From IMG/VR virus record IMGVR_UViG_3300021474_000001, positions 1-55,495 of that record: a stretch of 55,495 nt of DNA; one strand, written 5' to 3'. The notes under the pieces were generated by a model. It saw nothing but the letters and a program-made list of their open reading frames with translations, did no database searches and was not told the origin of the DNA. This stretch comes from a virus (Duplodnaviria > Caudoviricetes). Shown in pieces: positions 36,265 through 50,546 of this stretch (positions are counted from its first letter, which is position 1; each line of letters starts with the position of its first letter). The position numbers were made by a program, and so were the translations under genes.

Positions 36265-37121
36265 TTCACAAGGGACGAGTCGTAGTAGCTTACGCGCACG
36301 CGGGCAACGGAAAGATCGGATGGATGGAGTCTCTCCTGAAACTCCAAAAGTTCGATATGTACCACGAGCAGATCATCGAGGGCTTCGTCGGCTGCGGCGG
36401 GCACTTCACGACCGTAAACCGCAACGCCTGCGTGCAAGCCTTCATGGAACGCGAGAGCAAGCCTGAGTGGTTACTGTTCTTCGACACCGACATCGTGTTC
36501 CCGCAGTCGGAAGTGATTTACGGGCTGTACGAGGATGCCGACCCTATCGAGCGGCCCATCGTGTCGGGACTTTACTTCACGTACATCGACACCGGATTCA
36601 CGGCGACGTGGCTCAAGCGCAAAGACGATCCCGCGCTCGGCGAGTACCAATCGCTCAACCAGGTCGAGCCGGGGCTGCAGGAAGTGGACGGCATCGGCAT
36701 GGGCTGCGTCATCATTCACCGCAGCGTGTTGGAAAAAGTCGCCGAGGCGCATCCGCGCTCGCAAGATCCGTGGGTCTGGTTCGGGCACGACCTCGTGATG
36801 ACCTCGAAGGGACCGGATCGGCTCGGTGAGGATTTGACGTTTTGCCGACGCGCTCGCGAGTTGGGCTTCAAGATTTGGGGCGACGGGCGACTCGGCTTCA
36901 CGCATCTCAAGGAGCGCGAGGAGAACGTCGAGACGGTGATCGAGCGGTACAACGCGAAGCAGTTTGTCGATGGCGAGCAGGCGAAGGAGAACGCGGAACA
37001 CCAGAAGGCGATTGATGCGTTTTGGAACTATGCGCGCACGCCTGAATGGTTGGCGAGCGAATATTTCCCCTACAAAGGACCGCCGGACGAAACAGTTAAG
37101 AACGGAGCAATCATCCCATGA
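36261..37121 (+). CDS. GT-A fold (GT2-like) glycosyltransferase
   Basis: RN..V..F; WLLFFDTD (DxD); GMGCVIIHRSV; GEDLTFC; H.K. Confidence 0.88.
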   Translation: MIHKGRVVVAYAHAGNGKIGWMESLLKLQKFDMYHEQIIEGFVGCGGHFTTVNRNACVQAFMERESKPEWLLFFDTDIVFPQSEVIYGLYEDADPIERPIVSGLYFTYIDTGFTATWLKRKDDPALGEYQSLNQVEPGLQEVDGIGMGCVIIHRSVLEKVAEAHPRSQDPWVWFGHDLVMTSKGPDRLGEDLTFCRRARELGFKIWGDGRLGFTHLKEREENVETVIERYNAKQFVDGEQAKENAEHQKAIDAFWNYARTPEWLASEYFPYKGPPDETVKNGAIIP

Positions 37122-40100
37122 TGAAACGAGTCGCGGCGATAGCATTGCTCCTGCTGTTCGTGGTGGTGAGCTACGTCGTCACCATCCAGAATCCAGTGAA
37201 CGGGCCTCGATCAGCTTTTGCCGTGACTCCAACTCCTACAGCCCAAGTAACGTCGTCGCCTACAGCTTTGATTGGTGGCTCGAATCGCATGGGGTTCAAC
37301 CTTGGTGGCGATGACTATCAAGGCTGCTGCGGCGGCAACTACATGCAGAACATGTTTCAGAATCCCGGCCTCGAACCGTCAACGGACGGGCATCTGATCG
37401 ACGTGGGTCCGGGGGCAACCGGTAGTTCATTTACTGATACGACTGACAACGGTGCTGCGACAAACTACTGGGTGGGCGCGATAGCGTCGGTCAGAAGTGG
37501 CGCGGCGGCGGGCGACCAATTTACCATTACCGGCTACACGGCGGGCGGTTCCTATACCTTCGGCAGTTGTGAGAATGCTACGGGCGCCCCGATCAGTTGC
37601 CCCACCTTGGCAACCGGCGTGGCCGTGGGCGAAGTGCTCACCTCAGTCGATGTCGCGGGCAACATGGATACCAACGTCATCGGTGGCTGGGGCGGTGTTC
37701 ATGACGGACACTGCGTACTCTCCATCGCGGATAAGTACGAGGGCCAAGGTTCCATTGCTTGCAATGTCGCTGATGGTTCCGCCCACACCTTCAACTACGG
37801 GTGGGATTTGTCCACGACTACCGGCGGCGTGTGCTCGAATGACAGCGTAACTCCCTGTACCGTGGCGAATCAGACAGCGGATTGTGGAGGAGGGAATACC
37901 TGTCTTACGGCTCCGCAGGCTGGCCCGTGGCATCCCGTCGTCGGGGCGTTCGAGACTTCGTTTTGGGCCAAGGGTGCGAATACATCCACCGGCACGCCTC
38001 AAGTGTCGTTTCAACTCTACCGCACCGCTGGCGGTGGTGTGAACGTCAGTCACACATGGACGCTGACCAACGATGGCGCTTGGCATCAGTACACTTATTC
38101 CTTTACCGGCACGGATGTTGGCCCAAATCAAAATTCCTTGCTTTATCAATTTTCCACGACCAACAACTCGGCAGAGACTAGTGCGACCATCTACATCGAC
38201 GACGCCTATCTCGGCAAAGCAGCATCCTCAGCGACCGGTTTCCGCAACGAGATGCTAACTACCGTCAATGCGCTGAATCCCGGCTCGATGCGGTACGCGG
38301 CCTATGCGCAGTTGGGGACGAATGATCGGGGCTACGAGGGCGCGCAAGGCTGTAATCCGACACCTTCGTCGCCAACTACGACCGGCACTTGCGATATGTT
38401 GCACGGGGCTGCCTTTGATACCTACGGCGGCGCTCCGAATGGCAGCTGGACGTTCGCGGGGTCGGATGTCTACGCATTGGCGAATCAGACCAACTCGGTG
38501 CCATTTATGACGCTCGGAAACGTGATGAGCGACGCTGACCTCAAGAGCTTCATCGACAATCTGTGTACGGCAGTAAACACCTACAGCTTCCCATCAGCGT
38601 GGGTCGAAGGCGGCAACGAGAACTGGAATAACGGCGCGGGGCGTATCTCATTTGGCAACAATCCGGGTGCTTTGGGCTACGGCGGCACTTGGGGCCGCAA
38701 CTTCTCGGTTATGAACGCCGAAGCTACTGCCCACTGCGGCAGCGCGGTCGCGGCCAAGGTTCACTACATAATGAACAACCAAGCCTGCAACGGCGGCGTC
38801 ATCCAAACCGAGATAGCTGGCGCTGCCACGGCGGGTTTCGCCATTCCCAATACCAGTCAGTACGGAGGCGACGACGCGCCCTACTATCCGAACACGACCG
38901 CCATGCCGTTTGCGACGGGCAGCCTCGCGGCACAGGCGGCAACCTTCGCGGCCGATTTCTTCGGGTACATTCCTCAGTACGTCAATAACGGGAATGGTTG
39001 CACGGGTGGCGCGTCTAATGGCGACTACAGCTACGTTCAATCGAACAACGTGATCCCGTTCTACGAGGAAGGGCCGAACGCCTATTCGTCCAGTGGCGGC
39101 AGCACGACCGAACAGGGCTATCTCGCGCAAGCGGGCTACCCGAGCGCGGCGTGGATGGCGCAAAGCTGGCTATGGGGTCAGCAGCAAGGGCGAACGCCGC
39201 TGCAGAATGAGTATCAGCTCGCGCAGCCGGAGTTCGGCGGGTCAATCAGTGTGCCCATTTGGGGTTTCACGCACGACATGGATGCGGACTTCGGGCCGAC
39301 ATTCCCGCATCTGAGGTCCATCGGCATCGGTATGGAAATCGTCAACGGGGCGATCCAAGCCAACTATTATCCGATCACAGGGCTGCCGAGCGGTGTCGTA
39401 GGGAACGCCTATGGATCGAACGGGCTGGGCACGGGCAACATGAGCGCTGTGCTGGTCAACGGCAATGGCACTGCGCAATCCTTCGCGGTGGTGTTTCCGG
39501 CTGGCAGCACAGTTCCGCAGAGCTGTGTCGCATCCGTCTATACCAACGGTCTCGCCGACAACAATGAAAACTCCGACGATGTAACGGCGGGTGCTTGCAC
39601 CGGTGTCACGACTGTTGGACAGGCGGTCGGCATCACGTTGCGACCCTACCAAGTGGCGGCGATGGACGCCGGCACGCCAGGACCGACAGCAACAGCGACG
39701 GCGACCGCGACAAGCACAGCCACCGCAACGGCCACCGCTACTGCCACTGGAGGTGCGACGGCCACCGCAACTGCAACTGCGACCTCAACGGCCACAGCGA
39801 CAGCCACGAGCACGGCGACGGCCACTGCTACGACAAGCCCAACGCCAACTGCAGCTCCCACCGCAACTGCTTGCGCCGGCCTTCCTCCAACCACCGTCAC
39901 GATCACCGGCAACCTCTACGACAACTACGGAAATCCTTCGGTCGGTACGACGGTCGCGGTGACGCCGCTTAATCCGACCGCGCAGGGCTGTAGTCTGATC
40001 ATGGCGAATCCCGTGCCGACCAGCACGGACAAGTTCGGCCATTTCATCCTGAATGCAGTCGGCGGCATCTATTCCGCGGTGTCGTTTGCGGGCGGCGTCG

Positions 40101-40843
40101 ATCTACCGACGACGCTGATTCTGACGACGCTGCCGCAAACCGGCGTGGTGACGCTCTCTCAGCTTCTCGCCCAGCAATCGAATATCGTGACGAGTTTTCC
40201 GCCGAACGGAAATCTCAACATGAACGGATTTACGTTTCTGAACCTGGCAGGCGCGACCATCGCGGGGAATCCGGTGGTCGAGGGCTTGGGGTTGAGTGGC
40301 GGCGCCGTGTTCACGTCGAGTGGCACATTCACGGTCCCGCTGAACTCGACCTATATCGTCGCGACGCTCTTCGCTGGCGGGGGCGGTGGTGGTGGTGGAC
40401 ACGCAGGAACAAACGGTGGAGGCGGCGGAGGAGGTGGACAAATCCTACAATGCCTGATGCTTCCGGTGAACGGGACCATCACCGTGACGATTGGTGCGGG
40501 CGGCACCGCGGGTACGGCATCACCGAGCGCGGGCGGCAATGCGGCCGACACGACCGCGAGCCAGTCCTCATCCACGACGATCTGCGATGCTGGCGGCGGC
40601 TCAGGTGGCGCGGCGGGCTCGGGCGGTAGTCCTGGTGCGGGCGGTGCGGGCGGTGCTGCGAGTACGACGATTACCGGCGCCGCGATTCAGATGTTCGTGA
40701 CGACCGGCACCGCAGGCGCCAATGGCACGAGCAGCGCTGGTGGCACTGGCGCGGGGCTCGGGCTGTTCGGTGGCACGGGCGGAGCGCCGGCGGGCGCGGG
40801 CGTGGCGGGCGCGAAGGGAGTGGCATTGCTCAGGGCGTTCTAG
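37118..40843 (+). CDS. Exported clan-A-like glycoside hydrolase + Thr-Ala linker + tail-fibre-like/Gly-rich C-terminal module
   Basis: MMKR + hydrophobic N-terminus; GFR...LNPGSMRY; EGGNENWN; FYEEG; (TA)n ~39682-39870. Confidence 0.7.
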   Translation: MMKRVAAIALLLLFVVVSYVVTIQNPVNGPRSAFAVTPTPTAQVTSSPTALIGGSNRMGFNLGGDDYQGCCGGNYMQNMFQNPGLEPSTDGHLIDVGPGATGSSFTDTTDNGAATNYWVGAIASVRSGAAAGDQFTITGYTAGGSYTFGSCENATGAPISCPTLATGVAVGEVLTSVDVAGNMDTNVIGGWGGVHDGHCVLSIADKYEGQGSIACNVADGSAHTFNYGWDLSTTTGGVCSNDSVTPCTVANQTADCGGGNTCLTAPQAGPWHPVVGAFETSFWAKGANTSTGTPQVSFQLYRTAGGGVNVSHTWTLTNDGAWHQYTYSFTGTDVGPNQNSLLYQFSTTNNSAETSATIYIDDAYLGKAASSATGFRNEMLTTVNALNPGSMRYAAYAQLGTNDRGYEGAQGCNPTPSSPTTTGTCDMLHGAAFDTYGGAPNGSWTFAGSDVYALANQTNSVPFMTLGNVMSDADLKSFIDNLCTAVNTYSFPSAWVEGGNENWNNGAGRISFGNNPGALGYGGTWGRNFSVMNAEATAHCGSAVAAKVHYIMNNQACNGGVIQTEIAGAATAGFAIPNTSQYGGDDAPYYPNTTAMPFATGSLAAQAATFAADFFGYIPQYVNNGNGCTGGASNGDYSYVQSNNVIPFYEEGPNAYSSSGGSTTEQGYLAQAGYPSAAWMAQSWLWGQQQGRTPLQNEYQLAQPEFGGSISVPIWGFTHDMDADFGPTFPHLRSIGIGMEIVNGAIQANYYPITGLPSGVVGNAYGSNGLGTGNMSAVLVNGNGTAQSFAVVFPAGSTVPQSCVASVYTNGLADNNENSDDVTAGACTGVTTVGQAVGITLRPYQVAAMDAGTPGPTATATATATSTATATATATATGGATATATATATSTATATATSTATATATTSPTPTAAPTATACAGLPPTTVTITGNLYDNYGNPSVGTTVAVTPLNPTAQGCSLIMANPVPTSTDKFGHFILNAVGGIYSAVSFAGGVDLPTTLILTTLPQTGVVTLSQLLAQQSNIVTSFPPNGNLNMNGFTFLNLAGATIAGNPVVEGLGLSGGAVFTSSGTFTVPLNSTYIVATLFAGGGGGGGGHAGTNGGGGGGGGQILQCLMLPVNGTITVTIGAGGTAGTASPSAGGNAADTTASQSSSTTICDAGGGSGGAAGSGGSPGAGGAGGAASTTITGAAIQMFVTTGTAGANGTSSAGGTGAGLGLFGGTGGAPAGAGVAGAKGVALLRAF

Positions 40844-42780
40844 TGGGGAAGTCTTTCTCATGGACGGTCCTATTCCTGCTCGTAGCGACCACGGCGAGCG
40901 CGGGGATCGGCCTCGTGGGTAGTCCGCCGACTCCGCAGGTCACGACGAGTTGTTCATCGGGAACGATGGTATTTCCTTCAGTCAACGTGACGGCGGGCGA
41001 TGCTCTCGTCATTCAGTGGATCGGAACTTCGAGCGGCACAAATCCGCAGAACGCGACGAGCATGACCGACAATAACGGTCAGACTGATGGGACTGGCGCG
41101 AGCTGGATTCAACTCAACCAGACTCAAGTGACAAGCCCAGGACGGCAGACGGGGCACTGGTGGGCACCGAACCACAATTCGGGACCGACAATCGTGACGG
41201 TGCATTTCTCAGGCGGAAGCGCAGGAACGTGCGGCGGCATCGCGTACCTTGAAGAATGGTCGGGAATCAAGCGGACTGGGAATCCCGAGTTTCAGCCCAC
41301 GAATAGCGGGACGGGTACGTCGGTGACGGCAGGCACGGCGACGTGGAGCGCGGGCGATCTTTTACTCTCCGCGGGCGGACAGGTGGACACGGCCGCGGCG
41401 ATAGCGGGTGGGCCGACTAACTCGTTCACCGAATTTATGGACCCGACGAATCCGGCTGATACGGTGCCGATGGCGGCGTATCGTATCTTCGCGGCGGGCG
41501 GGACGCTCGGAACGACGTGGACGACGACGAACTCGGCGGCGTGGCAGGCGAGTCTAATCGGAATGCTTGCGGCCCCAGCGACAGCAACTCCTACCGCCAC
41601 AGCCACCGCGACGGCAACTGCGACCGCTACCGCCTCGGCCACAATCACGGCTACTCCAACCGCGACGGCGACGGCGACCGCAACGGCGACGGCCACCGCT
41701 ACTGCCACGAATGTTGCTACGGCGACTGCGACGCTCACGGCGACGGCTACGGCGACCATCAGCGCTACTCCGACAATCTCCGCGACCCCAACGGCGACGG
41801 CCACCGCAACGGCTACTCCTGTCGGAATTCCCACCGTTACGGTCACGGGCTGCGTGTACGACTTCTTCGCCAACCCAGTCGTCGGCACTGTCGTCGGCAT
41901 TTTCCCGCTCAAAGCAACGCCGGAGAACGGAAACGCCGTCGTCGCGAATCCGGTAGCGACCAACACGAATCTGCAGGGCTGCTTCTCGCTTCAGGTGGTC
42001 GGCGGGATCTACGACGCCTTCTACGTTCAGGGCAGCACGACGATGCCGATGGCGCTGCTCAAGGCGACACTGCCGCTGTCGGGGACGATCTCGTTCTCAA
42101 GCCTGCTTCCGCCGTCGAGCTCGGTCACGGCTTCTTTCCCGCCTGCTGGGAATCTTAGCTTGGCGGGGTTCACCTTCACGGGAGTCGGGTCTGCGTCGAT
42201 TGCGGGACAGATGGTGGTCGAGGGCGCAGGGTTGGACGGCGGGCAAATCTTCATCGTGAACGGCGTCTATACGCCACCGATGAATGCAACGTGGGTAGTG
42301 GCGACGTTGCTCGGAGGTGGAGGCGGCGGCGGCGGCGGAGCTACAGGTTCTACGCATGGCGGAGGCGGAGGGGGCGCGGGTGATTTGCTCCAATGTCTCA
42401 TGCTACCTTCTGACGGGACCGTAAGTGTCACGGTGGGCGCAGGAGGCAGCGGTGGTGCGGCGACAGTCAGCGGATCAGCGGGGACCGATTCGACGGTCAG
42501 TCAGCAGGGCGCGACGACGATTTGCGATGCGGGAGCGGGTAGTGGTGGGACTGGAGGGTCTGGCGGTGGAAACGGCACGGGTGGCGCAGGTGGCGGGGGA
42601 ACCATAACTGGCGTGGCGATGCAGATGTTCAACACGGCGGGAGCAAACGGTGCGAATGGCACGGGGGCGCTCGGCGGGGCGGGTGGAGGGATTGGATATT
42701 TCGGCGGGACGGGCGGCGCGCCGAATGGGCAGTCGGGCGTTGCGGGAAGGAGCGGGATTGTCCTCATGAGGTCGTTCTGA
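40843..42780 (+). CDS. Exported protein + Thr-Ala linker + paralogous tail-fibre-like/Gly-rich C-terminal module
   Basis: Signal peptide ending ASA; EEWSG domain; (TA)n ~41575-41820; C-terminal ~315 aa colinear with upstream gene. Confidence 0.75.
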   Translation: MGKSFSWTVLFLLVATTASAGIGLVGSPPTPQVTTSCSSGTMVFPSVNVTAGDALVIQWIGTSSGTNPQNATSMTDNNGQTDGTGASWIQLNQTQVTSPGRQTGHWWAPNHNSGPTIVTVHFSGGSAGTCGGIAYLEEWSGIKRTGNPEFQPTNSGTGTSVTAGTATWSAGDLLLSAGGQVDTAAAIAGGPTNSFTEFMDPTNPADTVPMAAYRIFAAGGTLGTTWTTTNSAAWQASLIGMLAAPATATPTATATATATATATASATITATPTATATATATATATATATNVATATATLTATATATISATPTISATPTATATATATPVGIPTVTVTGCVYDFFANPVVGTVVGIFPLKATPENGNAVVANPVATNTNLQGCFSLQVVGGIYDAFYVQGSTTMPMALLKATLPLSGTISFSSLLPPSSSVTASFPPAGNLSLAGFTFTGVGSASIAGQMVVEGAGLDGGQIFIVNGVYTPPMNATWVVATLLGGGGGGGGGATGSTHGGGGGGAGDLLQCLMLPSDGTVSVTVGAGGSGGAATVSGSAGTDSTVSQQGATTICDAGAGSGGTGGSGGGNGTGGAGGGGTITGVAMQMFNTAGANGANGTGALGGAGGGIGYFGGTGGAPNGQSGVAGRSGIVLMRSF

Positions 42781-43163
42781 TGAGACCCGCTATAGCCGAC
42801 CGCAATATGGCATCACTCATATCGCTCATAACCATTCTGCTGACCGTGGAAGTTCTCGCTTATCGGAAAGTTTACTTGGACGCTTACGACCTCAAGATGC
42901 AACCCATTTATTTAGAGCAGGGTCGGACGCCGCTAAACTATTATGCTTGGCAGGACGAGGACCATCGTTACGTCATCTCGGTATTACAGAACGGCGGAAC
43001 GCTAACCTTCGAGAACGTCACGGGCGGGCTTCCGCCTTTCAAGACAGCAATCGTCGGGTCGATAACCGGCGTGGGGACAATTCGCGTGCCAGCACCACAG
43101 CAGGACCAAGATATGTACGTTGATTCGACGGGGACAGCGGAGGTGCAGGTGCAAGCGCGATGA
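42780..43163 (+). CDS. Membrane-anchored/exported hypothetical protein
   Basis: N-terminal hydrophobic helix; coupled on both sides. Confidence 0.6.
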   Translation: MRPAIADRNMASLISLITILLTVEVLAYRKVYLDAYDLKMQPIYLEQGRTPLNYYAWQDEDHRYVISVLQNGGTLTFENVTGGLPPFKTAIVGSITGVGTIRVPAPQQDQDMYVDSTGTAEVQVQAR

Positions 43164-45259
43164 GACGACTACTGCCATTTCTGGTTCTGTTCTCACTACC
43201 GTGGAGCACTGTGGTATGGGCGCAGGTACTCTGTCCCCTATGCGATTGCTCCTTCGATGCGATCTCCGGTTCTACTACTGCCTCGACCGGCGGTAATCTC
43301 AATACGAGCATCGCGATTGCGGACCCAGGTGTTCACGTCGGGGATTCGGTGCTGTGCCTGGTCGGCTACGACTCGTACCTGCACGGAATTAATGCGATCG
43401 ATAATACATGGACGAATCTCGGGAATCTCCAACTGCCTGATGGCTCAGGCGAATCGTTGCTCTTGCAGAACTACCCCGGATCGTACCCGACCGCCAGTTT
43501 TCAAAACCTGAGCACTCTGATTGCCGAGAACTGGTCCGCTATCTGCGTCGCGAGTTCGTATCGCGCGTCTCTCGATGGCCTTGTGACGAGTCTGGCGAAT
43601 GCCGCCTCGACCACCGCCACGGCTCCCAAAGTCGTGATAGACCAGACCCTCACGTCCCTGTTCAACTTCTGCTCCACGCCGGGAACGATCACATTCTCGT
43701 CGCCTACTCTCGGATCGCTGGTCACGCAGCAGCACGCTTTCGGGCCGAGTGTGGCTGTAGCCAATAGCCGCGATGCGATTGTCTCTCCTACGTCCGCGAA
43801 CCAGATCACGCTCAGCACTTCGGCGGTGTCGGGCTGCATATCGGCGGCGTTCAAGTGCGGCCCGAATCCGACCGCGACTGCGACCGCCACAGCTACACCA
43901 ACGGCGACGGCTACGGGCGCGACTGCTACCGCCACTGCGACCGCTACACCAACGGCCACCGCATCACCCACCGGCTCGATCACGAATATCGTGGTGATCG
44001 AGAAAGAGAATCGCAGCTACGATAATTATTTCGGGACGTTCCCGTGTTCGGGCGGACCTTGCGGAGTCTCGACGGCGACCCTGAGTACGGGGGCCACCTA
44101 CGCGCTGACACGCGGAATGGATACGACCTCGACGGACTTCGACCACGACTACATTCCATTCATCACCGACATCGACGGCGGCTTGATGGACGGTTTCGAT
44201 AAGGCTCCGTGGTGTACCTCGACCAGCACGCCGCCCTATGGGTGCCTGATCCAGCAGGTGCAGGCGGACATCCCGAACTACTGGACGCTGGCGACGAATT
44301 ACGCGCTCGGCGACAATATGTTCCCGGACATCATCGGTCCCAGCCAGCCGAATCACTTGGCCATGCTGTTCGCGAGTTCATTCTTTGACATCAGCAATAC
44401 GTGGAACAACGGCACGACACAGAGCTGGGGCTGCGATGCGCCGCTGAAAGCTAGCGACTGCACGGCGGCGAACGTGCCAGGGCCGCAATGCACTGGCGCG
44501 GGAACCTGCCCGACTTGTACGGCGACTACTTCCGCTTACGTTCAACTTCTAGGGCAGACACCGAATACGAAGTACCCATGCTTCACGCAGACTTCGCTTA
44601 TGGACGAGGCGGCAACCGCCAGCGTCAGTTTCAAATGGTACGGTGATATAACCTTCGGCGACACCGGCTACTACTGGACCGCGCCGGATGAGCTGATCCG
44701 CTTCACCAACGGGACCGCGAATTGGACGAGTCACGTCGTGGCATCGACCCAATTCACCACCGATGCCGACGCAGGCACGTTGCCTCAGATCGCGTGGGTC
44801 ACGCCGGACCTCGCGCACAGTGAGCATCCGCTGGAAGGTATTTGCACCGGCGAGAACTGGACGATGAATCTGCTCAATCATCTGTTCGCAGGGCCGCAGG
44901 GAGCGCATACCGCCGTGTTCATCGTGTGGGATGAGAGCGGCGGTCTCTACGATCATGTGAATCCGCCAGTCATTCAGAGTGTCGGCGCGAATCGACTGTC
45001 GGCTGGTCCGCGCGTGCCGGTGCTGGTCGTCTCGCCTTATGCCCGCGCGACTGGTGGCGTTGCTGCGAACGTAATCCATACGCAGGTGCTATTCTCTTCG
45101 ATTGTGAGGCAGATCGAAAACCAATTCGGACTGCCGCGACTCGGCGGGCACGACTCGACCGTGAACGACATGAGCAGTTTTCTCAACCTGAACCAGACGC
45201 CGATAACGTGGACGCCGCTGGTTCAGAGAACAGGTGGATCGTGCGTTACATCGCCGTAG
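43160..45259 (+). CDS. Exported phosphoesterase (AcpA/phospholipase C family) with N-terminal beta domain and Thr-Ala linker
   Basis: MRRLL signal peptide; IVVIEKENRSYDNYFG; GPSQPNH; SEHP; WDESGGLYDHV.PP; GPRVP.LVVSPYA. Confidence 0.9.
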   Translation: MRRLLPFLVLFSLPWSTVVWAQVLCPLCDCSFDAISGSTTASTGGNLNTSIAIADPGVHVGDSVLCLVGYDSYLHGINAIDNTWTNLGNLQLPDGSGESLLLQNYPGSYPTASFQNLSTLIAENWSAICVASSYRASLDGLVTSLANAASTTATAPKVVIDQTLTSLFNFCSTPGTITFSSPTLGSLVTQQHAFGPSVAVANSRDAIVSPTSANQITLSTSAVSGCISAAFKCGPNPTATATATATPTATATGATATATATATPTATASPTGSITNIVVIEKENRSYDNYFGTFPCSGGPCGVSTATLSTGATYALTRGMDTTSTDFDHDYIPFITDIDGGLMDGFDKAPWCTSTSTPPYGCLIQQVQADIPNYWTLATNYALGDNMFPDIIGPSQPNHLAMLFASSFFDISNTWNNGTTQSWGCDAPLKASDCTAANVPGPQCTGAGTCPTCTATTSAYVQLLGQTPNTKYPCFTQTSLMDEAATASVSFKWYGDITFGDTGYYWTAPDELIRFTNGTANWTSHVVASTQFTTDADAGTLPQIAWVTPDLAHSEHPLEGICTGENWTMNLLNHLFAGPQGAHTAVFIVWDESGGLYDHVNPPVIQSVGANRLSAGPRVPVLVVSPYARATGGVAANVIHTQVLFSSIVRQIENQFGLPRLGGHDSTVNDMSSFLNLNQTPITWTPLVQRTGGSCVTSP

Positions 45260-45516
45260 TACTCATTCTGGCCGGATGCAACCCGTATCGCGGGAACCCT
45301 GACGGCATCTCGCAGGAGTCGGTCTGGCAGGCGCGGCAGGCGATCTGCGATGCGGCGCGGACTGGACGCCAGCTCGACCCAGACGCGGCGATGGGGATGG
45401 CGATTTTCGATTACGAGAACGGAGAGTGGGACGACGATGACTGCGTGATCCGTCCGAAGGCAGGGCAGATAGGCAAGCTGCTGGACTTGGGTTCAGCGAG
45501 GCCGGATTGGTCGTGA
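45241..45516 (+). CDS. Small lipoprotein
   Basis: VRYIAVVLILAGC lipobox. Confidence 0.55.
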   Translation: MRYIAVVLILAGCNPYRGNPDGISQESVWQARQAICDAARTGRQLDPDAAMGMAIFDYENGEWDDDDCVIRPKAGQIGKLLDLGSARPDWS

Positions 45517-47174
45517 GACGAATAGCACTCATCGCCGTGTTGCTCGCGTTTCTCTTACCGACGAAGGGATGGGCGCAGAGCGCCGTCGATTCGACTAGCA
45601 TCGTTCAGCATAAATCCTGCCCCAACCTGACGCCGAGCGGGTCTGTGGCGACGTGCGCGTTTACGAGTGCCCCGGCAGTCGGCAACCTCATCATCGCCAT
45701 CGGAGCCACGGCGGGCACGACGATCACACAGACCTTCACGAGCAACAACGGCACCTGCACCTCGCGAGAGTTACAGACCGGCCAGAACTCAGGACAGCAA
45801 ATCTCGGAATGTACGGTCACCGCGAACGTGGCTACGACCATCACGGATACCCTCTCGTCGCTCAACGGCTTGACCGCCATCGAAATCATGGAAGTCCACG
45901 ACACGGGCGGCGTCGTTTCTTTCGACGTGGCGGGCGGCGTGAAGAACGGATCGGCGTCGGCGAACGTATCGAGCGGCGCGACGGGAGCGACTAACAACGT
46001 GGTGGACTTCTGCGTGGCAGCGCTCAGCTTCGCCAGCACGATTGGCAAGACGCCCACGGCGGGTCCGGGGCTGCTCGCGGCGGCTGTGCCGAGTGCGTGG
46101 AACGTGATCGACAACAACACGACCGCAGGGCCGGGAATGCTGACTGCGAGCACCGTGACGAGCGCATCGGCGTTAGCAGTAGCCTCAGCGTGGTCGTGGA
46201 GTGGCGCTACTTCAACCACAGGCGGCACGGTCTGCTACAAGGGGCAGGTGCAGCCGACGATTGCGCCAGCGGGGACGCCGACGACAACTGTGTACACGGC
46301 CGTTTCCTCTTCCGCGATTACTCTCGCTAGCAGTTCGGCGTCCGCGTGTAATCGGGTTCAGTTATGCGACAGTACTGGCCTATTAAGCTCGCCCTCATGT
46401 ACGTGCACTGGGGGAACCTGTACGCGAGTGCTTGGACCGACAACATGGAACACCATTCAGAGCAAGGCTGTGTTTTTCTGTAATGGTTGCACGGGTAGCT
46501 TATCCTGTTCTTTTGGAGTCACCGCCAATGGGGTTGCGGCAGTTGACGCTTTTACCGGATCGTCGTGCGCGACAGATTGTTCAGGCGCGGGCGATCAGAC
46601 AGGAAGCAGTGCGACCTCAACCTCAAATAGTTTGACGAGTTGCAATCAAGGCGATGCGCTCTTGTACGACGCTTGTAATAACGGCGGGGGGGCTTATTCA
46701 AATTCTACTCCGTTGGCCAGTACAGCGTCGCTCAATACCACTGCTACTCCCGCCAGTCTTCTCGCCTACTACTTCGACACCGCCCCCTCGACCAACACCA
46801 GCCCCGCGCAGAGTCGCACACAGGGCAACGTCGCATGGGTATCCGGTGCGGTAGGGCTGGGACCGGCGTCAGCGGCGACTGCGACGGCAACGGCGACTGC
46901 GACCGCCACGGCAACAGCAACTGCTACAGCGACAGCTACGGCCACCGCAACGGCGACAGCTACGGCCACTGCTACCGCGACCGCTACAGCCACAGCAACG
47001 GCTACCGCAACAGTGACAGCCACGCCCACGCCGATCGCTACTCCGACGGCGACGGCTACGGCTACGGGCGGTGCCACTAACCCAACGCCCATTCCGCAAT
47101 CTCTCGGACAACCCGGCTTCGGCCCATCACGACCATTAGGCTCTCGACCTGAAGGATTTGGAGGAGTTCTATGA
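45507..47174 (+). CDS. Exported Cys/Ser/Thr-rich protein with long C-terminal (Ala-Thr)n tract
   Basis: RRIALIAVLLAFLL...GWA signal; two beta domains; (AT)n ~46873-47070. Confidence 0.75.
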   Translation: MVVRRIALIAVLLAFLLPTKGWAQSAVDSTSIVQHKSCPNLTPSGSVATCAFTSAPAVGNLIIAIGATAGTTITQTFTSNNGTCTSRELQTGQNSGQQISECTVTANVATTITDTLSSLNGLTAIEIMEVHDTGGVVSFDVAGGVKNGSASANVSSGATGATNNVVDFCVAALSFASTIGKTPTAGPGLLAAAVPSAWNVIDNNTTAGPGMLTASTVTSASALAVASAWSWSGATSTTGGTVCYKGQVQPTIAPAGTPTTTVYTAVSSSAITLASSSASACNRVQLCDSTGLLSSPSCTCTGGTCTRVLGPTTWNTIQSKAVFFCNGCTGSLSCSFGVTANGVAAVDAFTGSSCATDCSGAGDQTGSSATSTSNSLTSCNQGDALLYDACNNGGGAYSNSTPLASTASLNTTATPASLLAYYFDTAPSTNTSPAQSRTQGNVAWVSGAVGLGPASAATATATATATATATATATATATATATATATATATATATATATATATVTATPTPIATPTATATATGGATNPTPIPQSLGQPGFGPSRPLGSRPEGFGGVL

Positions 47175-47617: not shown

Positions 47618-48109
47618 ATGCAACCCATCACCGACATCACGTCGCTGCTGACCTTCGAGGAAGGGGATCGCTTATTCGTGTACGACGACCACACCGGCAA
47701 GCCGATTACGAAGGGAAGTCATTGCTTCGGCAATCCAACTATCGGTCGCGGACGCGCGTTAAATATCGAAGGCATTTCAGAAGTCGAAAGCACCTACCTG
47801 CTCAACAACGACGTGGCCCATTGGCGTGCGGAGTTGAGTCAGTTCTCTTGGTACACCAATCTCGATCAGGTGCGGCGTGACGCAATCGTCAACATGGCAC
47901 ACGCGCAGGGCGTCGCGGGCGTCGAGGGCTATCACGACATGATCGCGGCACTCGTGAAGGAGCATGCCGAGACGGTGGCGGCGCTACAGGCTCAGGACTG
48001 GAAGGCGGCGCGTGATGCCGTGCTGCTGTCACGCTGGGCAGGTGAAGACTCTGAGCGGGCGACTCGATGTGCCAACATGCTGTGGTCTGGGGTGTACCCG
48101 ATAGTATGA
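47618..48109 (+). CDS. Endolysin, T4-lysozyme-like muramidase (GH24)
   Basis: EEG.RL.VY.D.TG...TIG.G; L...R.DAIVNM; S.WA...RA.R. Confidence 0.88.
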   Translation: MQPITDITSLLTFEEGDRLFVYDDHTGKPITKGSHCFGNPTIGRGRALNIEGISEVESTYLLNNDVAHWRAELSQFSWYTNLDQVRRDAIVNMAHAQGVAGVEGYHDMIAALVKEHAETVAALQAQDWKAARDAVLLSRWAGEDSERATRCANMLWSGVYPIV

Positions 48110-48192: not shown

Positions 48193-48582
48193 GTGGTACC
48201 TTCAGGCAATCTGTACGGCCTCCTCACGGCAGCGCTCTTGATTCTCAACACGATAATGGTGTGGTGGTCAGGCCGGGCAACGCGCGGAACCGTCAAGGAC
48301 GAAGGGAGCGCCACCCGCGACGACGTGAAAGAAGTTCACACACTGGTCAATAGCGGACTGACCAAATTGATCCAATCGAAGGACGAGACCATCGCGAGCA
48401 CCGAGCGCGCCGCCAGCGCGGAAGGGAAGGCCGAGGGGATAGCACAGGAACGCGAACGGCACGAAGCCTCGTCGATGACGGCGGCACTGAGAGTAATTGA
48501 CGAGCCAGTCCAACCGGCGAAATCGGGTGACTCCATCACGTTGGAAGCGCCTGTGAAAATTGAGGTCACGGAAAAGAAATAG
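48193..48582 (+). CDS. Single-TM lysis-module protein
   Basis: N-terminal TM; EVHTLVNS. Confidence 0.6.
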   Translation: MVPSGNLYGLLTAALLILNTIMVWWSGRATRGTVKDEGSATRDDVKEVHTLVNSGLTKLIQSKDETIASTERAASAEGKAEGIAQERERHEASSMTAALRVIDEPVQPAKSGDSITLEAPVKIEVTEKK

Positions 48583-48814: not shown

Positions 48815-49134
48815 TGGCAGACACGACGCCGATAGTCGAAACCACTGTCACCGAAAAGAAAGTGGGAGATGCCGCGACGCAGCAACCGCCGCCGCCGCAG
48901 ATTATAGCCGATGACAACGCCCGTAAATGGCTCGCTGTTGGGGTCATCGTTCAATTCCTACTGGTCATCGGCTACATCGTGTACACAGGCAAAGGTCAGG
49001 TTCAGGCGAGCAATACCGAACTGATGATTCTCGGTGCAGAAGTCACCTTCATGACGACCGTGCTGAACTACTATTTCGGTAGCAGCAGCGGCTCGACCGC
49101 AAAATCGCAGATTCTCGACACCAAGACCAAATGA
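48814..49134 (+). CDS. Holin-like two-TM protein
   Basis: TVLNYYFGSSSGS..K motif. Confidence 0.7.
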   Translation: MADTTPIVETTVTEKKVGDAATQQPPPPQIIADDNARKWLAVGVIVQFLLVIGYIVYTGKGQVQASNTELMILGAEVTFMTTVLNYYFGSSSGSTAKSQILDTKTK

Positions 49135-49335
49135 AGCGTCGCATCTACGTGCCGGAGGAAAAAGCGTTCCTCATCCGAGAGGATGCGATGGACGACCTCG
49201 AAGCGCACGCGGATTGGCCGCGACGCGGCTGCGACCAGACCGAGCAGTTGCGAATATCGGCGGACATCAAAAGGATGATGGCGAAGGTTCGCGAGCACCC
49301 AGTACCGCAGAGAACGCGATTAATCGACCCTTAAT

Positions 49336-49364
49336 TTGATATTGGCGGCGAGTCGGCGTAGTGT
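49336..49364 (+). promoter_or_regulatory. Sigma70 promoter, leaderless
   Basis: TTGATA-17-TAGTGT-6-ATG. Confidence 0.6.
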
Positions 49365-49370
49365 GGCGAA

Positions 49371-49544
49371 ATGGACCGCGACGAGGAAAATACGAGGCTA
49401 CTGAATAACGTCGTTACCGAGTTGCAGCACATCAAGGAATTACTCAGAGACAAACTCGATCAGATCATCGCGAACACGGCTCCGAAGCCGAGCACCGATA
49501 TAGCAAGTCTAGGGGTGACGGTCGATCCACCAATCAAACAGTGA
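49371..49544 (+). CDS. 57-aa coiled-coil protein ending DIASLGVTVDPPIKQ (not in ORF track)
   Basis: Translated by hand; heptad L/I pattern, then a tail matching the next gene's tail. Confidence 0.8.
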   Translation: MDRDEENTRLLNNVVTELQHIKELLRDKLDQIIANTAPKPSTDIASLGVTVDPPIKQ

Positions 49545-49554
49545 GGAGAGAACG

Positions 49555-49941
49555 ATGCCAGGAAAAGTAGGTTCATTCAAAGCGACCGCCACGCAGACGA
49601 TGCTTGACGATCAGAAGGCTCTCGTGCATTTTCAGCCGCTTGATTCGACCGGCGCTCCGACCTCGCTGCCGACTGGCGGCGCGCTCGTATTCGCGCTGTC
49701 CGATGCGACCGCGACTCTCGTACCGCCGCCCGCAGACCCGACGACAGGGATTGTCGATCCGTTGGCAATCTACGTCGTGGGCGTGAAAAAGACGGCGGGC
49801 ACTCCGACGCTCACCGGCACCTTCACGAACGCAGACGGCACCACGGCGACCGGCGGCGTAGCGTTCACCATCACAATTGACCCCGCAGAACTCGACGTGT
49901 CGAGCCTCGGCGTCACTGTCGATCCGCCCGTTTCCCAGTAG
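49555..49941 (+). CDS. Ig-like beta-sandwich protein ending DVSSLGVTVDPPVSQ
   Basis: GAGGAG RBS; alternating beta pattern. Confidence 0.8.
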   Translation: MPGKVGSFKATATQTMLDDQKALVHFQPLDSTGAPTSLPTGGALVFALSDATATLVPPPADPTTGIVDPLAIYVVGVKKTAGTPTLTGTFTNADGTTATGGVAFTITIDPAELDVSSLGVTVDPPVSQ

Positions 49942-49953
49942 CTTCCTCGCGCT

Positions 49954-50003
49954 CGCCGCGCCTGCATTTCCCCCCGAGACGCAGGTTGCGGCGGGCGTTC
50001 TTT
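49954..50003 (+). terminator. Stem-loop/terminator after the two-gene unit
   Basis: cgccgcgcctgc...gcaggttgcggcg followed by ttcttt. Confidence 0.55.
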
Positions 50004-50014
50004 CCCCTTCCAAG

Positions 50015-50044
50015 TTGACATCAGCCAACCGCTTGGCTCATAAT
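50015..50044 (+). promoter_or_regulatory. Sigma70 promoter, leaderless
   Basis: TTGACA-18-CATAAT-7-ATG. Confidence 0.7.
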
Positions 50045-50213: not shown

Positions 50214-50329
50214 TGAAGAAAAATCCTCACGCGGTCGCGCTCGGACGCAAGGGCGGCAAGGCCAAGACTCCCGCCAAGGCGAAAGCGGCGCGCGAGAACG
50301 CCAAGAAAAAGGTGAAGCATGACTCGTAA
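50213..50329 (+). CDS. 38-aa Lys-rich peptide (KNPHAVALGRKGG type)
   Basis: MKKNPHAVALGRKGGKAKTPAKAKAARENAKK. Confidence 0.7.
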   Translation: MKKNPHAVALGRKGGKAKTPAKAKAARENAKKKVKHDS

Positions 50330-50546
50330 ACTGATTGCTCTCGCGGCGCTCTCGATGCTGATTTATGGTTGCTCAACGTTGTGCTCGATACCGGGCATCT
50401 CGTCGCTGAACGTCTGCACACAGCCTACAGCCTCGGCTAGCGCCACTGACACGCCGACTGCTACGCCATCGCCAACCGCCGTAGCGAATGCGCCGTGGCC
50501 CGTAGCTCCAACCGGACTGCCGACACCTCGACCGGGGATTAACTGA
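50319..50546 (+). CDS. Lipoprotein with Thr/Pro tail
   Basis: LIYGC lipobox; TPTATPSPT. Confidence 0.65.
   Translation: MTRKLIALAALSMLIYGCSTLCSIPGISSLNVCTQPTASASATDTPTATPSPTAVANAPWPVAPTGLPTPRPGIN

Follow-up and report, generated by a model that had tools for sequence, protein, structure and literature searches.

Chaperone-usher pili and TasA fibres are built from Ig-like or jelly-roll subunits, each of which lends a terminal strand to its neighbour. In these systems the donor strand is N-terminal and the subunits are secreted, and chaperone-usher pili additionally employ a chaperone and an usher; none of these features applies to the phage cassette described here, which consists of two adjacent genes with matching C-terminal tails. 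In type V pili, according to the consulted part of one account (PMC13655056), the C-terminal donor strand of one pilin displaces the N-terminal anchor strand of the next, and the fibre is terminated and tethered by an anchor subunit that retains its own strand. Compared with chaperone-usher pili and TasA, the type V pilus, as described there, is the better analogue of the cassette. In the type V pili of Bacteroidia (FimA/Mfa1 as stalk, FimB/Mfa2 as anchor) as well as in the cassette, an N-side strand and a C-terminal strand appear to fit one site. However, each type V pilin has two transthyretin-like domains and is exported as a lipoprotein, with its groove freed by gingipain cleavage, whereas the cassette encodes one small Ig-like domain with no signal peptide and makes its strand-less subunit from a separate gene or an internal start, with no protease step in evidence. 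The anchor and donor strands of the cassette also have nearly the same sequence, a similarity which is not known from type V pilins. The cassette proteins showed no relation to type V pilins by sequence or Pfam, no Pfam, PHROG or PDB-sequence match placed them in a pilin or TasA family, and export signals or assembly factors (chaperone/usher, lipoprotein signal with protease, Sec signal) are absent from the cassette. In a limited full-text search, judged by titles and the beginnings of abstracts, we found no description of a phage-encoded strand-exchange fibre.

The cassette lies in a whole-virus record, which is 55,495 bp long, has direct terminal repeats and a G+C content of 59.6%, and constitutes the entire window analysed here. 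Among its products are a terminase, portal and major head proteins, tail proteins, RecT and a DnaB-like helicase/primase. No integrase was found among the ORFs scanned in the window, and the reading of the gene pair as a moron expressed from a prophage is therefore unsupported. An endolysin-like gene (47618-48109; phrog_7, E 3e-8) is followed on its 3' side by genes for small membrane proteins, and the pair is located directly downstream of them, just after the lysis genes as had been described before. A 67-aa gene immediately 5' of the cassette (49131-49334) is 96% identical across three kin contigs with differing alleles. On either side of the cassette lie the members of a spanin-like pair, separated by 1.7 kb: an i-spanin-like candidate of 129 aa with an N-terminal membrane segment and a helical remainder (48193-48582), and an o-spanin-like candidate, a proline-rich 75-aa lipoprotein with the lipobox LIYGC (50319-50546). 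The genes for the 75-aa lipoprotein and phrog_19005 are also found together 3' of the cassette in L002 and L008. Neither cassette protein has the features of a spanin, namely an N-terminal membrane anchor with a periplasmic coiled coil or an outer-membrane lipoprotein signal.

Both genes are on the plus strand, in different frames, and ORF reading of the window bore out the two ORFs of the earlier note. The small gene (49371-49544) encodes 57 aa with an amphipathic helix and a tail, X, as supported by the ORF, separate homologues and the helix model of fused relatives. The large gene (49555-49941) encodes 128 aa with an Ig-like beta-sandwich and a tail, X', for which the ORF, homologues, an AF2 model and generic fold matches are at hand. 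The stop codon of the small gene (TGA, 49542-49544) is followed by GGAG (49545-48) and then by the ATG of the large gene at 49555; the Shine-Dalgarno sequence of the large gene, GGAGAG (49545-49550, plus strand), lies 4 bases 5' of this ATG and persists as Gly-Glu/Asp codons in fused relatives. The last 15 residues of the two proteins are near-identical, with DIASLGVTVDPPIKQ in the 57-aa protein (X, proposed anchor strand; 49497-49541, plus strand) and DVSSLGVTVDPPVSQ in the 128-aa protein (X', proposed donor strand; 49894-49938, plus strand). When the six frames of the window were searched with the 9-residue motif SLGVTVDPP, allowing up to 3 substitutions, the two tails were the only matches, and it is this fuzzy search that defines them as the only two ORFs with the tail. 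The tail DNAs have 28 of 45 bases in common and 8 of 11 same-residue codons differ, as expected from the earlier claim that the match is kept at the protein level. Hydrophobic N-terminal segments are missing from both proteins (19-residue Kyte-Doolittle means peak at 0.46 and 1.31), in agreement with the reported absence of signal peptides.

The pair is a member of a large undescribed metagenome family, without a cultured-phage match in the collections searched. The large protein has 38 relatives in a collection of 5.8 billion proteins, and a profile search of 1.84 billion representatives detected 142 clusters with an E-value of 1e-3 or better, of which 28 reached 1e-10; the neighbours in the Atlas are clusters of viral hypothetical proteins. 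Neither the pair nor 10 distant relatives matched Pfam or PHROGs, and the family matched nothing in a PDB sequence profile search. No relative was obtained when three family members were compared by tblastn with 50,697 deposited phage records, nor among GTDB genome contigs or in IMG/VR searched with the single large protein and with an alignment (A1).

Two architectures are found in the family, the split pair and an in-frame fusion with the order helix-X-Ig-X'. Eight of the 38 relatives are longer forms, in which the counterpart of the small protein (helix and tail X) is fused in frame through a short linker to the Met of the large protein. Among six metagenome loci that were read, three are fused (L002, L005 and L006), one is split (L004), one is interrupted (L003), and in one the contig end is too close (L007). 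Stand-alone small proteins of 59 aa (98% identity) and 57 aa (74%) recur, and two other alleles are split as well, so the split state is not a sequencing error. Thus, the same gene pair with co-varying tails was found elsewhere, split or fused, and the upstream partner with a matching tail, whose lack in homologues would have spoken against the earlier reading, is present in them. In the interrupted locus, HNH_3 endonuclease genes lie on either side of the large gene (111-554 and 904-1344; Pfam E 1e-14 and 7.5e-13), and one of them separates the small and large parts, with a coding remnant of tail and linker on both its sides; homing endonucleases may take part in the movement of the cassette.

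The fused genes carry a trace of the large-gene start. Among 93 proteins with an N-terminal extension of at least 30 residues, 62 have a Met in the junction window, although the placement of this window is rough for distant family members, and 47 of these 62 are preceded by residues typical of a translated Shine-Dalgarno sequence. In the close fused forms listed, the junction Met is kept in 15 of 15. Hence, a short Ig-X' product may also be made from fused genes, via an internal start. In P0112, P0143 and perhaps the small protein of L004, the helix is replaced by a hydrophobic segment followed by basic residues, which by the positive-inside rule would place the Ig part in the cytoplasm. In another sub-group (P0066, P0068, P0072, P0076 and P0080) there is no helix, and a short strand in the N-extension, such as (I/V)GP(V/I)xEQ, matches the C-terminal ...TP(G/P)TPxxQP; here the rule of matched strands holds without a coiled coil.

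The two tails of one pair resemble each other more than those of other pairs. In 13 close pairs, tails of the same pair were identical at 9.6 of 15 residues and tails of different pairs at 6.9; in 100,000 shuffles, the own-pair value was never reached. In 75 wider relatives, the own N-extension and C-tail scored 26.3 versus 17.0 (reached by 0 of 20,000 shuffles), with the own tail ranking first in only 16 of the 75 and in the top three in 30. Distant relatives have very different motifs which are still matched within the protein, for example PTGFDVRE with PTGFVVAE. Recent gene conversion as the cause of the match can be rejected, since in each of six genomes X and X' use different codons for 4 to 9 of the 8 to 11 residues that they share. 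The match in 19 pairs was confined to tail positions 5, 7, 9 and 10, at which 0, 27, 0 and 1 of 10,000 shuffles reached the observed identity, compared with 2039, 8522, 8264 and 4894 at positions 6, 11, 13 and 14; the tails had been selected by a pattern that prescribes a residue class at positions 1, 2, 5 and 12 and leaves the choice between L and F at position 5 free. As read from the alignments, the matched positions have the periodicity of a strand with a single buried face.

In the large protein, the Ig-like domain comprises residues about 10-108 (49582-49878, plus strand), with an invariant MLDDQ (16-20) and the tail-tracking residues H25 and F104, and also A22, V102 and F26. AF2 with the family alignment predicted a 7-strand Ig-like sandwich (pLDDT 88.7), in which residues 21-26 are in the second strand and residue 104 is in the last, and the model leaves residues 108-128 of the monomer as coil (pLDDT 73-80). 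For a fused homologue, the N-part was predicted to form a helix (residues 2-26), and the tail was folded back as a strand in neither of the two models. With Foldseek, the large protein resembled a Rib domain (6s5w, E 2e-4), the lambda gpV C-terminal domain (2l04, E 4e-3) and Big_2 proteins in BFVD. The similarity to Big_2-type domains is generic (TM about 0.5); the Big_2 Pfam profile was not matched (E up to 0.1), and in the nearest Atlas cluster with a Pfam family, Big_2 is found in 17% of members. The large protein thus appears to share the fold of Ig-like phage domains such as those of lambda gpV and Hoc. These are appended to virion proteins, whereas the Ig domain of the cassette stands alone in the lysis region with matched tails. 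A 3-copy complex prediction of a fused form (L002:796-1299), which was run without controls, gave ipSAE values of 0.02 and 0.08 (mark 0.42) and counts neither way.

Both tails are coupled to this domain. An alignment of 57 close relatives, corresponding to an effective number of 48, gave H25-D123 as the MI-APC pair with the highest value overall (0.551; sd of all pairs 0.058), D123 being tail position 10, followed by F104-V122, A22-V122, V102-V122 and F26-V120; these pairs give no single clean strand register. His25 and Asp at position 10 of X' occur together in 41 sequences and are both missing in 15, with one mismatch (56/57 agree), and position 10 of tail X obeys the same rule in 19/19 pairs. 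One lineage is charge-swapped, with Asp25 and Lys. Phe at tail position 9 is found in 7 sequences at 5 places in the tree, always with Val or Leu and not Phe or Tyr at residue 104, and residue 104 is aromatic in 43 of the 50 sequences lacking this Phe; at position 9, the residue of X equals that of X' in 19/19 pairs. Kinship confounds these couplings, as the independent pairs on supported branches number 1 for H25/D123 and 4 for F9/104, and sign tests were not significant. The co-variation supports the view that both tails track Ig strands 21-26 and 100-106, as expected of strand docking into the fold, whether in cis or in trans, which co-variation cannot separate.

These couplings also bear on a different explanation, in which the tails bind each other as a beta-zipper, in a shared beta-barrel or prism, or by in-register amyloid-like stacking, and no common groove is involved. 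Short like-with-like motifs in adjacent genes are a hallmark of bacterial amyloid signalling pairs, as described in the consulted part of 10.1101/2020.01.06.895854, and identity at the same positions would suit in-register pairing. As far as the part consulted goes, amyloid signalling pairs (HET-s/NWD2; BASS with Bell/NLR) resemble the cassette in having a short, co-varying motif common to adjacent genes. However, their motifs form cross-beta rungs which link an NLR sensor to a killing domain, whereas in the cassette it is a folded Ig domain that the motif co-varies with. Residues within this domain are tracked by both tails, and in P0042 tail X follows residue 25 while X' does not. The match is also restricted to one face of the strand, the motif is not G-, N- or Q-rich, and an Ig domain on a 5-residue linker would be expected to clash if it were repeated each 4.8 angstrom. 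No NLR-type sensor or Bell/HeLo-type effector is among the cassette carriers, which are the 57-aa helix and the Ig-like domain. We therefore regard tail-to-tail binding as distinctly unlikely.

Comparison with kin phages indicates that the pair is exchanged as a unit. As defined by BLASTN breakpoints and by reading of the kin alleles, the segment at 49361-49939 (plus strand) is unaligned with kin phages. The kin contig L008 aligns to the window with 91% identity up to 49360 and with 84% identity from 49940, with no alignment in between. The upstream flank ends with a conserved TTGATA and T-A-n-n-n-T, and the downstream flank begins at the stop codon and includes a hairpin and the next promoter, so that the pair, called a self-contained unit in the earlier note, is indeed exchanged between conserved regulatory flanks. 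The gap of this contig holds another split pair, with proteins of 71 aa ending in VVTGIEVEPGAPTTRP and 136 aa ending in PTGGIVVTPGTPTTRP, and L009 carries the same allele. BLASTP detected no relation between the large proteins of L008 and the window, and a profile comparison gave a weak relation (probability 46%, E 2e-4). L010 represents a third allele behind the same 67-aa gene (96% identical), with the tails DITKLGGSISPPIKK and DVKTLGGSISTPVAK and Thr at residue 25. The three alleles at this locus end in Q/Q, K/K and TTRP/TTRP, and the tails are matched within each of them. Since the neighbouring genes barely change while the two tails change together, the partner of the tails would most simply be located within the cassette.

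This exchange is difficult to reconcile with tails that act as addresses for a third component, which could be a virion or host protein, or as a site where a protease would release products with a terminal Q. Tail addresses have a precedent in the peptides that target T4 internal proteins to the capsid. In addition, the terminal residue is conserved and matched (Q/Q, K/K, P/P), and some relatives extend past the motif and end in [KR]RP, both of which would suit such a role. However, kin phages with 77-96% identical neighbour genes carry quite different tails, so an outside partner would have to change too, and the tails co-vary with the Ig domain of the cassette itself. The downstream gene has no detected protease family either, and we consider a third component very improbable. 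Among its specific versions, a capsid-targeting or cargo peptide as in T4 internal proteins or encapsulin cargo would be conserved among kin viruses, and three tail types were instead found behind near-identical flanks. There is likewise no support for the idea that the 262-aa gene downstream (phrog_19005) or the ORF following L006 encodes a papain-like protease which cuts behind the tail.

Based on these observations, we propose that X and X' fit one Ig groove as anchor strand and donor strand, respectively, and that a capped head-to-tail oligomer is formed, a model to which we give somewhat less than an even chance. X' would fit a groove lined by strands 21-26 and 100-106 of the large protein, and the small protein would be an anchor or oligomerisation helix bearing X, a copy of X'. 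If both tails fit the same groove, a single domain cannot hold both. The simplest arrangement would be a head-to-tail chain, as in the earlier note, in which each large subunit inserts its X' into the groove of its neighbour; the groove left empty at one end would receive X from the small protein, by which the chain is capped and tied to the helix. For the fused relatives, the self-capped anchor subunit would be the long form, helix-X-Ig-X', and the chain subunit the short Ig-X' from the conserved internal start. Trans docking, formation of a polymer and a cytoplasmic site of assembly are what we infer for this model. The earlier note had suggested that a donor strand completes the fold of the neighbouring subunit. 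Co-variation of the tails with Ig strands 21-26 and 100-106 speaks for the donor strand, but the AF2 monomer already looks complete, and, judging from the 7 strands of the predicted sandwich, completion of the fold may have to be replaced by augmentation of an edge or groove. Overall, the matched tails are a real and general observation, and co-variation with the Ig domain and cassette exchange specifically strengthen the donor-strand idea.

The same groove could also operate as a strand-swap switch without a polymer, in which X' docks in cis and X of the small protein competes for the groove, giving a 1:1 complex, or n:n via a helix bundle. The released X' could, for example, expose a binding surface, or the Ig domains could become tethered to an oligomeric or membrane anchor. 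Co-variation of tail with Ig domain and of X with X' suits a switch equally well, the 5-residue linker after the last strand could let the tail fold back, and the pLDDT of 73-80 indicates that the tail is not fully disordered in the monomer model. However, AF2 places no tail as a strand in cis, and the internal start in fused relatives would give an excess of Ig-X' over X, which is unneeded for a 1:1 complex. We consider the switch unlikely. For the capped oligomer, we can only suggest a role as a variable adhesive or protective fibre, which is made late in infection and released at lysis.

The promoter-like TTGATA-17-TAGTGT (49336-49365, plus strand) is the last conserved stretch of the upstream flank. 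It fails a consensus promoter scan, but L008 and L010 retain its -35 hexamer and, of the -10, the T-A-n-n-n-T, with divergence starting right after, and so the earlier promoter call is backed by kin conservation and missed by the scan. The 57-aa gene is probably leaderless, judging from the spacing. Downstream, the terminator-like hairpin (49949-49998, plus strand), already pointed out in the earlier note, is conserved with stem changes in a kin phage and has a folding energy of -36.4 kcal/mol (z -5.0), which none of 200 shuffles equalled. Directly 3' of the hairpin, a strong promoter-like sequence, TTGACA-18-CATAAT (11/12; 50015-50044), is conserved in L008, and the genes downstream of the cassette therefore seem to have their own start. 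The pair is covered at 100% identity by RNA-library contigs from three soil metatranscriptome runs; one contig (49393-49936) spans both genes and another begins at 49336. No RNA-library contig was found over 49004-49335, including the 67-aa gene, which is not evidence of silence. These contigs are a weak hint of expression of the pair, as they are blind to starts and levels, and DNA may be present in the libraries.

If the capped-oligomer model is true, it would have several implications. First, strand-exchange assembly would extend from the secreted fibres of bacteria and archaea to phage proteins without export signals. Second, gene splitting or internal initiation would be a new way of priming subunits, replacing the chaperone or protease. 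Third, the matched tails would be a rule, readable from sequence, for which subunits join; the Q-, K- and TTRP-type tail alleles would be a natural specificity panel, and such short orthogonal plug-and-socket pairs could serve protein engineering. The cassette is also a hypervariable late gene unit in many uncultured soil phages. As a more doubtful generalisation, which we put forward only tentatively, widespread tailed-phage cassettes may form donor-strand-exchange polymers without chaperone or secretion, in the infected cell or at the inner membrane. Their anchor and donor strands would be kept interchangeable by selection, the strand-free subunit would come from a split gene or nested start and not from proteolysis, and the Ig subunits would be swapped as hypervariable alleles with a role in host-phage or phage-phage conflict.

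Several other features were seen at the ends of the tails and in the region upstream of the lysis genes. In many relatives, a low-complexity extension past the tail ends in [KR]RP at the C-terminus (P0028, P0033, P0037, P0038, P0041, P0051, P0053, P0055, P0057 and P0062). In the allele at L008:3351-3994, TTRP ends both tails, akin to these recurrent ...RP ends. Two adjoining genes, 37118-40843 (1241 aa) and 40843-42780 (645 aa), both end with a Gly_rich_2 domain (PF21722, E about 1e-9). In the tail-fibre region, a 699-aa protein (43160-45259) has a full Phosphoesterase family domain (PF04185, E 1.6e-54), a family of phospholipase C and acid phosphatases which is unusual in a phage tail module. 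The 555-aa protein encoded at 45507-47174 has a signal-like N-terminus and a long Thr-Ala repeat run close to its C-terminus, and parts of L008 align to the DNA of this repeat and to 39683-41756.
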